Notes under the pieces: model-generated
Databases searched by the model: none
Told to the model about the DNA's origin: nothing
The model's input: the letters and a program-made list of their open reading frames with translations, nothing else
Translations under genes and position numbers: made by a program
Shown: positions 22,090 to 27,503 of the stretch, in pieces
Layout of the letters: every line of letters starts with the position of its first letter
Position numbering within the stretch: the stretch's first letter is position 1
NCBI GenBank assembly: GCA_964016885.1
Contig: CAXHJY010000223.1
Span: 1 to 34,694 of the forward strand
Direction of reading: 5' to 3'
DNA length: 34,694 nt
Source of the DNA: Eledone cirrhosa
Taxonomy: Eukaryota

Positions 22090-22112
22090 TCACACACACA
22101 CACACACACATA

Positions 22113-22162
<50 letters not shown>

Positions 22163-22185
22163 GTATATATCGTATATATATATAT

Positions 22186-22231
<46 letters not shown>

Positions 22232-22246
22232 TAGTAAAATGAGGTA

Positions 22247-22334
22247 TCCTCTTGATAAGTCGGCAGACCTCGCAAGGACTCTATATCTTTGATATATTGT
22301 TTTTGTTTATGCCACGAAACTACGTAGTCGAGGA
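22247..22334 (+). ncRNA. Type I hammerhead ribozyme, U3-A8 variant (copy 1)
   Basis: Helix I TCCTC(22247-51)/GAGGA(22330-34); core TTGATAA (22252-58); stem II GT(C)GGCA/TGCCAC closed by G-C; GAAAC (22316-20); palindromic helix III ACTACGTAGT; GUC triplet, predicted cut after 22329. Confidence 0.85.
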
Positions 22335-22837
22335 ATTTAGGAACAGTTTAGGTATGATACATTTTATTACTAATTATATCTAAATGTTTCTTCTCTCTTC
22401 ATAATGTATTTTTAACTCTGATACTGGTTCAGTCTGGTTCAAACTGAATTGGTCTGTCCCAGTCATTCATTGAGCAACATCGGTGAAGTTGGCACCCTTA
22501 ACTCACAGTTGGGTGCGGATGCATTCATGTATATATGTGTGTGTCCGCATATATCTGTGTGTTTCTAAATATATTAATAACTCCCTCTGGTCGAGCAATC
22601 TTTGAGGTGTGGGGACAACTGGAAAGCTTCCATTACTCATACTTCTCGCCTTCTTCACTACCTCTTCTACGGCCTCGATATGAATACCCCCTCCGCCTCT
22701 GTGGTATTTTCTTCGTGGTTATAAGAGGCTTAGCTCTGCTTCTCGACCGTTATATCGCGTGACTATCTCCCCCTCCGCCTTTTGGGATTCTTTCTCACGT
22801 CGTGTAGACGCGTTCTTGAGACTAGTAAAATGAGGTA

Positions 22838-22925
22838 TCCTCTTGATAAGTCGGCAGACCTCGCAAGGACTCTATATCTTTGATATATTGTTTTTGTTTA
22901 TGCCACGAAACTACGTAGTCGAGGA
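22838..22925 (+). ncRNA. Type I hammerhead ribozyme, U3-A8 variant (copy 2)
   Basis: Same as copy 1; predicted cut after 22920. Confidence 0.85.
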
Positions 22926-23428
22926 ATTTAGGAACAGTTTAGGTATGATACATTTTATTACTAATTATATCTAAATGTTTCTTCTCTCTTCATAATGTAT
23001 TTTTAACTCTGATACTGGTTCAGTCTGGTTCAAACTGAATTGGTCTGTCCCAGTCATTCATTGAGCAACATCGGTGAAGTTGGCACCCTTAACTCACAGT
23101 TGGGTGCGGATGCATTCATGTATATATGTGTGTGTCCGCATATATCTGTGTGTTTCTAAATATATTAATAACTCCCTCTGGTCGAGCAATCTTTGAGGTG
23201 TGGGGACAACTGGAAAGCTTCCATTACTCATACTTCTCGCCTTCTTCACTACCTCTTCTACGGCCTCGATATGAATACCCCCTCCGCCTCTGTGGTATTT
23301 TCTTCGTGGTTATAAGAGGCTTAGCTCTGCTTCTCGACCGTTATATCGCGTGACTATCTCCCCCTCCGCCTTTTGGGATTCTTTCTCACGTCGTGTAGAC
23401 GCGTTCTTGAGACTAGTAAAATGAGGTA

Positions 23429-23516
23429 TCCTCTTGATAAGTCGGCAGACCTCGCAAGGACTCTATATCTTTGATATATTGTTTTTGTTTATGCCACGAA
23501 ACTACGTAGTCGAGGA
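23429..23516 (+). ncRNA. Type I hammerhead ribozyme, U3-A8 variant (copy 3)
   Basis: Same as copy 1; predicted cut after 23511. Confidence 0.85.
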
Positions 23517-24019
23517 ATTTAGGAACAGTTTAGGTATGATACATTTTATTACTAATTATATCTAAATGTTTCTTCTCTCTTCATAATGTATTTTTAACTC
23601 TGATACTGGTTCAGTCTGGTTCAAACTGAATTGGTCTGTCCCAGTCATTCATTGAGCAACATCGGTGAAGTTGGCACCCTTAACTCACAGTTGGGTGCGG
23701 ATGCATTCATGTATATATGTGTGTGTCCGCATATATCTGTGTGTTTCTAAATATATTAATAACTCCCTCTGGTCGAGCAATCTTTGAGGTGTGGGGACAA
23801 CTGGAAAGCTTCCATTACTCATACTTCTCGCCTTCTTCACTACCTCTTCTACGGCCTCGATATGAATACCCCCTCCGCCTCTGTGGTATTTTCTTCGTGG
23901 TTATAAGAGGCTTAGCTCTGCTTCTCGACCGTTATATCGCGTGACTATCTCCCCCTCCGCCTTTTGGGATTCTTTCTCACGTCGTGTAGACGCGTTCTTG
24001 AGACTAGTAAAATGAGGTA

Positions 24020-24107
24020 TCCTCTTGATAAGTCGGCAGACCTCGCAAGGACTCTATATCTTTGATATATTGTTTTTGTTTATGCCACGAAACTACGTAG
24101 TCGAGGA
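24020..24107 (+). ncRNA. Type I hammerhead ribozyme, U3-A8 variant (copy 4, in the partial unit)
   Basis: Same as copy 1; predicted cut after 24102. Confidence 0.85.
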
Positions 24108-24176
24108 ATTTAGGAACAGTTTAGGTATGATACATTTTATTACTAATTATATCTAAATGTTTCTTCTCTCTTCATA

Positions 24177-24250
<74 letters not shown>

Positions 24251-24353
24251 ATACATATACATGTATATATATATATATATATACATGTGTATATATATAT
24301 GTATATATATATTTATATATATTTATATATATGTATATATATATATATACATG

Positions 24354-24392
<39 letters not shown>

Positions 24393-24443
24393 ATATTTAT
24401 ACACGTATATGTATATATATGTATTTATATATATATGAAGATC

Positions 24444-24512
<69 letters not shown>

Positions 24513-26748: not shown

Positions 26749-27503
26749 GGGCATGCCCACAAAGTCGGAAAATAGCACAGCTCCCATGACTTTCGGAAAC
26801 ATGTTTTCACGCTCAGAGTTGCTGAAGCATGGAACAAACTACCTGCATCAGTTGTTAGCTGTTGAGACACTGCATCCTTTAAAACCTCCATGGAACAAAC
26901 TACCTGCATCAGTTGTTAGCTGCCGAGACACTGTATCCTTTAAAACCTCCATGGAACAAACTTCCTGCATCAGTTGTTAGCTGTTGAGACACTGCATCCT
27001 TTTAAACCTCATGGAACAAACTACCTGCATCAGTTGTTAGCTGTCGAGACACTGTATCCTTTAAAACCTCCATGGAACAAACTACCTGCATCAGTTGTTA
27101 GCTGTCGAGACACTGTATCCTTTAAAACCTCCATGGAACAAACTACCTGCATCAGTTGTTAGCTGTTGAGACACTGCATCCTTTAAAACCTCCATGGAAC
27201 AAACTACCTGCATCAGTTGTTAGCTGTCGAGACACTGCATCCTTTAAAACTTCCATGGAACAAACTACCTGCATCAGTTGTTAGCTGTCGAGACACTGCA
27301 TCCTTTAAAACCTCCATGCTTTCTGAGATTCGCCAACACTACACCTGATGCCGCCCCCCGCCCCTCCATACAAACGCACACATGTATTTCATGACTCATA
27401 CACTGTTCATTTTCCTGACATTTGTACATTATTCTATGCACTATACATGCACCTTTGATGAGGTGTAGCACTGTATACAATAATTTCATTAGTATTATTA
27501 TTT
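26749..27503 (+). mobile_element. 5'-truncated CR1-like LINE 3' end (decayed ORF2 C-terminus, 3' UTR, ATT tail)
   Basis: Frame from 26749 reads GHAHKVGK*HSSHDFRKHVFTLRVAEAWNKLPASVVSC*DTASFKTSM, matching the (R)GH..K...R..F..RV...WN.LP..VV......FK pattern of CR1-clade ORF2 C-termini. After the array it ends MLSEIRQHYT-TGA (27346-27348), followed by a UTR and an ATT-rich tail. Confidence 0.8.
26828..27318 (+). repeat. 61-bp minisatellite, 8 units, inside the LINE remnant
   Basis: Units begin CATGGAACAAAC at 26828, 26889, 26950, 27010, 27071, 27132, 27193 and 27254; closing CATG at 27315-27318. Confidence 0.95.

Follow-up and report, generated by a model that had tools for sequence, protein, structure and literature searches.

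Animal non-LTR retrozymes are dispersed, non-coding tandem units with a GC content below 50% and one type I hammerhead ribozyme each, features that recur in the parts of the published accounts drawn on here (Cervera and de la Pena 2020, PMC7229834; Li, Clavereau and Pollet 2026, bioRxiv 10.64898/2026.07.22.740005) and that the family described below has in common with them. According to the sections of the latter report used here, retrozyme consensus lengths range from 51 to 972 bp, the units derive from pLTRs, a local tandem amplification is suggested with its mechanism left open, and one of nine predicted Xenopus retrozyme dimers was cleaved in vitro (bioRxiv 10.64898/2026.07.22.740005). Retrozyme circles have been shown in coral, mussel and axolotl, and tandem cDNA made from such circles has been proposed, with Penelope-like elements (PLEs) as candidate helpers (PMC7229834); dimeric hammerheads are covered in PMC6765202. 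In the parts of the two animal retrozyme papers considered here (PMC7229834; bioRxiv 10.64898/2026.07.22.740005), no insertion-level evidence for a circular template is presented.

The PLEs leave inverted copies, often with a tail at one end only (PMC8557442, PMC3846280). Self-priming on an antisense template has been suggested, with the choice between sense and antisense left open (PMC3846280), and the origin of tandem or inverted PLE ends with a one-sided tail has been named as a next task (PMC8557442). For Poseidon_Ac in vitro, reverse transcription starts internally at two sites and both target strands are cut and extended; the relevant sections describe no difference in start site between the strands, a predicted dimer, and a ribozyme cleavage that is dispensable (PMC11167929). 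Covariation to U3:A8 has been reported in the hammerheads of Schistosoma PLEs (PMC4209133).

The DNA analyzed here (the window) is a stretch of 34,694 nucleotides from Eledone cirrhosa, an animal whose 3.0-Gb genome is rich in microsatellites. A first-pass annotation made from the letters alone had described an array of apparently identical head-to-tail 591-bp units, bounded by (TA)n at both junctions and free of any reverse transcriptase (RT) or transposase frame, and had read it as a non-LTR retrozyme. The description was confirmed, and the retrozyme architecture is supported. The array comprises 3.31 head-to-tail units with no mismatch when base i is compared with base i+591 (22228-23591), (TA)n tracts adjoin it on both sides (Table 1), the longest stop-to-stop frame within the units is 86 amino acids, and five PLE proteins searched against the unit with tblastn gave no match (best E value 0.13), so the array has no coding capacity. 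The insertion is a single arm whose 3' end lies at 24177-24182, at the position called site A below. Positions within the unit are given as u, with u1 at 22229. The array represents a single young insertion from an abundant retrozyme family that encodes no protein and is non-autonomous, a kind of element already known. The region u440-591 may hold an internal promoter, going by its sequence.

Three other classifications were considered and rejected. A tRNA-derived SINE lacks support in a tRNA-related head, as ARAGORN found 0 tRNA genes in the window and Rfam none at the gathering score or at E ≤ 10. An autonomous Neptune PLE is contradicted by the lack of any frame with RT plus GIY-YIG, both within the array and adjoining the 88 family loci that we delimited, and a plant LTR retrozyme, with type III hammerheads in its LTRs, by the type I motif and the head-to-tail units. 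Elsewhere in the window, 26828-27318 is a tandem repeat of 61 bp (8 copies, 95% matches) that we take to resemble the tandemly repeated 3' end of a CR1/L2-type LINE.

Table 1. Features of the array in the window and of the candidate partner element (u, unit coordinate).
Feature	Position	Strand	Basis or remark
Retrozyme insertion, 3.31 identical 591-bp units	22228..24182	+	5' truncation at about u1; site A at the 3' end
(TA)n target, left part, read as (AT)n	22110..22228	.	Repeat tract
(TA)n target, right part	24180..24498	.	Repeat tract
Hammerhead 1, predicted cut after 22329	22247..22334	+	Motif, folding, conservation
Hammerhead 1, stem I	22247-22251/22330-22334	+
Hammerhead 1, core	22252-22258	+
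Hammerhead 1, stem II	22259-22315	+
Hammerhead 1, GAAA	22316-22319	+
Hammerhead 1, stem III	22319-22328	+
Hammerhead 2, predicted cut after 22920	22838..22925	+	Motif
Hammerhead 3, predicted cut after 23511	23429..23516	+	Motif
Hammerhead 4, predicted cut after 24102	24020..24107	+	Motif
Hairpin A, u102-175, once per unit	22330..22403	+	z -4.3 (u102-181 versus shuffles); kept in diverged copies
Site A, u176-181, fixed 3' end	22404..22409	+	36/75 arms; short AT homology to target
Hairpin B, u272-335, in three full units	22500..22563	+	z -4.0 (u262-346)
Site B, u340-346, second fixed 3' end	22568..22574	+	35/75 arms
u440-591, two GC-box-like tracts and a TATA-like word	22668..22819	+	Sequence; excess of 5' ends at u440-536
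Near-private change u511C	22739; also 23330, 23921	+	In all three full units
F1, Neptune-type PLE	L061:2260-7440	minus	Further copies L190-L233

Every unit carries a type I hammerhead made up of stem I (u19-23 with u102-106, strands TCCTC and GAGGA), the core TTGATAA (u24-30), stem II (u31-87), GAAA and a palindromic stem III, with the cut predicted after GUC. The core is a variant in which U3:A8 replaces C3:G8; with this qualification, the four complete plus-strand motifs of the first-pass annotation were recovered at 591-bp spacing. Rfam hammerhead models matched nothing in the window, at the gathering score or at E ≤ 10, and the assignment is therefore based on motif and structure. That the motif is not a chance occurrence follows from a 22-mer spanning the cut site, which has 7,502 exact copies in the genome, compared with 0 for its reversed control. 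In a diverged copy (L142) with about 80% identity over the rest of its sequence, the 5' half of the ribozyme, which played no part in choosing loci, is identical at 27 of 27 positions, indicating that the motif is under selection; hairpins A and B also still fold there. This conservation suggests that the hammerhead is functional. No fixed change was seen in the catalytic core among the family loci, a result that is not significant taken alone.

Hairpin A engages the 3' strand of stem I in pairing of its own and stops just short of site A. In folding predictions, stem I forms with a probability of 0.77-0.89 in the isolated motif versus at most 0.04 in its natural context, where the active fold lies 4.3-9.8 kcal/mol above the best one. 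The ribozyme is thus predicted to be masked in its natural context, which would protect a circle yet puts cleavage in doubt, and with it the efficient release of monomers from read-through RNA.

The first-pass annotation had implied a dispersed mobile family, and the genome bears this out, with the 7,502 exact 22-mer copies and 88 loci with precise ends. Its suggestion that the length of the unit might mark an undescribed family does not hold, since published consensus lengths make a 591-bp unit ordinary; the family, itself or a similar one, may figure in the supplements of that survey (bioRxiv 10.64898/2026.07.22.740005). The unit is present in the assembled contigs of all four sequencing runs searched; three of them also contain the 591-bp head-to-tail joint, and one has loose (TA) ends at sites A and B. 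Two runs labeled as other organisms (X3 and X6) contain a nearly unchanged unit at low depth, which could reflect contamination, a mixed sample or close kin; run X3 includes a closed contig of 621 bases on unit 22229-22819 at a depth of 7.8.

We tallied insertion ends in an unbiased sample, the first 100 matches of the 22-mer, which gave 50 loci over 54 Mb of the largest chromosome and 75 arms (at least 60 nt, at least 85% identity, one duplicated insertion counted twice). Because loci were sampled via the ribozyme 22-mer, arms that cross the cut are favored. The 3' ends are almost all at two positions, 36 at site A, 35 at site B and 4 elsewhere. Sites A and B lie 80 and 245 nt downstream of the cut, each follows a strong hairpin and finishes with a short AT word matching the target, and the 165 bp between them (u182-346) constitute a tail. 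A TA-rich 3' flank accompanies 70 of the 75 arms; for scale, TA tracts make up 15.8% of the window, although this measure differs from the flank count. The 5' ends are scattered, with a broad excess at u440-536 (27/75, duplicates included) that possibly marks transcription starts of linear templates. The sample is biased against 5' ends near the cut, and a single one of the 75 falls at u97-107; genome-wide, copies that start at the cut show no excess (6,690 versus 7,502 22-mer matches).

Nearly half of the loci (43 of 88) are head-to-head inverted. These pair one arm ending at A with one ending at B in 39 cases, two B arms in one (L185) and two A arms in none, the other 3 having a noncanonical or cut end; the single-arm loci comprise 25 ending at A, 17 at B and 1 elsewhere, and 2 loci are too diverged to assign. 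Within the unbiased 50 loci, all 22 inverted insertions with both ends canonical are A+B. Fold-back copying of one arm from the other would also yield 5' ends that lie close together, as they do (at most 21 nt apart) in six inverted loci. At L182, L133 and L118, however, the two arms cover different parts of the unit without overlap, so neither was copied from the other. Fold-back copying is therefore rejected for these three loci, and with it as a general explanation of inverted arms; it may have operated at other inverted loci.

Variable 5' ends combined with fixed 3' ends, a one-sided tail and an inverted 5' copy are hallmarks of PLE insertion. Together with the TA targets and the internal position of the fixed 3' ends, they lend support to the earlier suggestion that PLEs mobilize the family, which we regard as well supported by the insertion patterns.

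Divergence within the family is distributed as if each locus had a single template, amounting to 0.40% within arms, 0.46% between the arms of one locus and 2.19% between loci. The window array shows this in a near-private change, u511C. A 25-mer containing it has 7 matches genome-wide, 3 in the window, 1 in L235 and 3 in older copies, and six sibling loci differ from the window unit at u511 only. L235, an A+B inverted insertion, is 100% identical to the window unit including u511C and lacks u347-448. It consequently cannot be the parent of the window array; the window array may be the source locus of L235.

The spectrum of changes differs according to whether they are shared by all units of a locus. 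Counted on the sense strand, the 62 distinct changes that every covered unit of a locus shares include 25 A>G and 7 T>C, versus 10 A>G and 25 T>C among 133 unit-specific changes (Fisher p 7e-5); the tally is limited to sites at which old and young copies have the same majority base, in a unit with 132 A and 212 T. The skew persists in the unbiased set alone, with L140 left out, and at threefold cover (p ~0.0016 each). In a small set of loci chosen for their closeness to the window, the ratio is 4 A>G to 3 T>C among fixed changes versus 3 to 9 among unit-specific ones, which is not significant (p 0.33). A thin independent check on four further loci, added once the skew had been noticed, gave 7 A>G and 0 T>C among their fixed changes. 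G>A is likewise common among the fixed changes (13/62). The 5'-neighbor bias of A>G is weak (U in 14/25, p 0.04), and its positions show no enrichment for paired bases (16/25, versus 79/132 for other As). Selection for base pairing is unlikely to be the sole cause of the skew, as A>G makes up 40% of fixed versus 7.5% of unit-specific changes and paired sites are not enriched. A private cluster lies at L140, where A>G at u214, u215 and u233 is found in all seven covering units in both arms; u214G in its 29-base context occurs nowhere in the assembly but in these 7 units.

A-to-I editing is the established activity of ADAR enzymes, and it would most simply account for the fixed A>G changes. Errors of the RT, like edits made on a multimer, would be unit specific. 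The fixed changes point to one monomer: we infer that they arose on a single sense RNA monomer and were then copied into every unit. This evidence gives indirect support to an RNA template that was monomeric and probably circular.

A candidate source of the enzyme is a Neptune-type PLE family, F1. It is autonomous, with an RT plus GIY-YIG frame containing the CX4CX2C cysteine linker given for Neptune in the section of PMC8557442 used here, with TA targets and with copies about 98% alike. Its hammerhead has the U3:A8 core and 11,539 exact ribozyme copies in the genome. The fixed 3' ends of F1 lie 82 (site A) and 150 nt past the cut, and its two-arm loci (n = 24) comprise 20 A+B, 4 with B and an unclear end, and none that pairs like with like. 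F1 arms end sharply 31-43 nt upstream of the ribozyme in 30 of 54 cases, with none at 44-61; many copies are short palindromic stubs, with 5' ends about 30 nt downstream of a TATA-like word, and this edge is likely a transcription start. The hard edge and the intact ribozyme imply that the template of F1 is an uncut linear RNA. No such edge is found in the retrozyme family of the window.

Among the 10,595 GIY-YIG candidates in the genome, 150 were scored, and none of the 50 PLE loci sampled resembles the unit at the nucleotide level by BLASTN. PLE fragments near L186 and L142 were rejected as parents, being separate insertions, and one retrozyme copy (L056) is inserted within the 3' microsatellite region of another PLE. 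Retrozyme copies also occupy the TA tract immediately past the 3' ends of F1 and of a further PLE family, F4, in the left flanks of L024 and L026; this is nested use of common targets.

Several other hammerhead elements were encountered. F4 has a hammerhead-like motif with a U3:A8-type core and GCAA replacing GAAA (L079:2900-3250). A second retrozyme-like family (L151-L180, for example, L159:1213-1676), older than that of the window, has a 319-nt unit, a U3:A8 hammerhead whose 10-nt palindromic stem III differs from that of the window, TA targets, inverted arms and two fixed 3' ends about 30 nt apart; the same pairing rule applies to it, and by eye 30 loci include 11 A+B and 1 A+A. Another element (L066:28-130, L079:4457-4560) has a canonical core and a 36-nt stem II and ends about 45 nt past the cut, in (TA)n, and at L071:7564-8600 a PLE frame is followed downstream by three minimal hammerheads of canonical type, spaced about 500 nt from one another.

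These observations can be assembled into an insertion cycle in which the retrozyme family would borrow the RT/GIY-YIG enzyme of a Neptune-type PLE. Hammerheads would cut read-through RNA, perhaps only as dimers or with the help of protein, and the 591-nt monomers would be ligated into circles, in which hairpin A would mask the ribozyme. The mutation spectrum suggests that this structured sense RNA gains A-to-I edits. The genomic record shows that (TA)n is targeted and that insertion begins at the fixed internal sites A and B, and that inverted insertions almost always combine one end of each, a pattern that could arise if the nicked target strands were primed one at A and the other at B on one RNA molecule, plausibly with an enzyme dimer priming both target strands. 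Each cDNA would then roll round the circle and fall off at random; two surviving cDNAs joined head to head would give an inverted insertion, and one survivor a plain tandem array. The array in the window would represent 3.3 turns from site A and one surviving cDNA. Judged from genomic patterns, we think it likely that a PLE-type enzyme twin-primes both target strands and rolls on one edited circular sense monomer. We lean slightly toward the fuller statement that the insertions of this family record rolling-circle reverse transcription, twin-primed by a Neptune-type enzyme at two dedicated sites on one A-to-I-edited circular sense RNA that is copied several times.

Other templates could serve a PLE enzyme. 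An uncut linear multimer might be inserted, with arrays growing and homogenizing later at the DNA level by unequal crossing-over or conversion, as proposed in part of the recent survey (bioRxiv 10.64898/2026.07.22.740005). The uncut linear RNA of F1 fits this account, as do the predicted masking of the ribozyme, the broad excess of 5' ends at u440-536 and the finding, in the sections of PMC11167929 used here, that cleavage is dispensable for insertion in vitro. Arrays do gain unit-specific changes with age (L122 has 11 that are unshared), yet divergence within loci is five times lower than between them. Edits to a multimer would also be unit specific, whereas the excess of A>G is seen exclusively in changes shared by every unit; moreover, one private cluster occupies both inverted arms of L140, and array ends are fixed at the priming sites. 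We consider this account improbable. A cut linear monomer on which the enzyme jumps repeatedly from its own 5' end to its 3' end, with no covalent circle, would account equally well for the fixed edits, the homogeneity and the selection acting on the ribozyme. It predicts 5' ends or scars at the cut site, where the biased sample of 75 has a single 5' end, and no excess of copies is seen just 3' of the cut; we give this version a rather small chance.

Two readings concern the nature of the unit itself. Were it the pLTR of an undiscovered autonomous PLE, with the arrays as truncated by-products, the match of all the insertion hallmarks to PLE pLTRs would be expected, and the scoring of 150 of the 10,595 GIY-YIG candidates leaves room for such a parent. 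Against this, none of the 88 loci runs from the repeat into a reading frame, nearby PLE fragments are separate where looked at, and the family has its own subfamily history and a unit closed on itself, which makes a hidden parent very unlikely. An expansion of one unit during assembly would account for the zero differences between the units of the window, whose contig lies outside the large chromosomes. It is hard to reconcile with arrays of 2-7 units that have few unit-specific differences and precise ends at many chromosomal loci, and we regard it as scarcely credible. Our preferred reading is insertion from an edited circular monomer primed at A and B.

Taken together, the retrozyme kind, the unit size and the one-sided tail are already known, and the value of the family lies in its insertion record, which supplies countable evidence on whether circles serve as templates and on how PLE ends are built. 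Insertion from a circular RNA copied repeatedly off both cut strands was proposed earlier, and the patterns here point to it. If this is true, retrozyme circles would be real transposition intermediates with the sense strand as template, and the one-ended tail and inverted arm of PLEs would come from priming at one site per strand. With two priming sites on the RNA and a candidate family for the enzyme named, the cycle is directly testable in vitro, and a parasite that supplies an RT with circular RNA and lands in TA repeats offers a lead for RNA-templated tandem insertion. By title and abstract, with few subscription journals covered, we found no report of the A+B count rule or of edit footprints in retrozymes; a search for Penelope and twin priming, by title and the start of the abstract, returned nothing on one-site-per-strand insertion.

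L1 twin priming likewise uses two primers on a single RNA and yields an inverted insertion with a microhomology joint. The retrozyme family differs in that both of its priming sites are internal and fixed in position, and in that both arms can extend over several units. Relative to the animal non-LTR retrozymes, as the parts drawn on here describe them (PMC7229834; bioRxiv 10.64898/2026.07.22.740005), it adds a U3:A8 core, a 57-nt stem II, (TA)n targeting, two fixed priming sites, the 165-bp tail and inverted arms. The Cercyon PLE hammerheads of Schistosoma share U3-A8 covariation and a palindromic stem III, although these minimal hammerheads are described in the section used here as mostly single motifs, whereas the window motif is larger and lies in a tandem non-coding unit (PMC4209133). 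Also close in insertion behavior are the endonuclease-bearing PLEs of the Neptune clade. In the parts of the reports drawn on here (PMC3846280, PMC8557442, PMC11167929), such PLEs show the same 5' truncation, inverted 5' copy, one-ended tail, microsatellite targets and two internal RT starts, together with cutting and extension of both target strands (Poseidon_Ac, in vitro). Unlike them, the retrozyme family has no ORF, its tail measures 165 bp rather than 30-40, and its priming sites have short AT homology to the target. It also follows a near-strict rule of one site per strand, in contrast to the lack of strand difference described in vitro in the corresponding section of PMC11167929.
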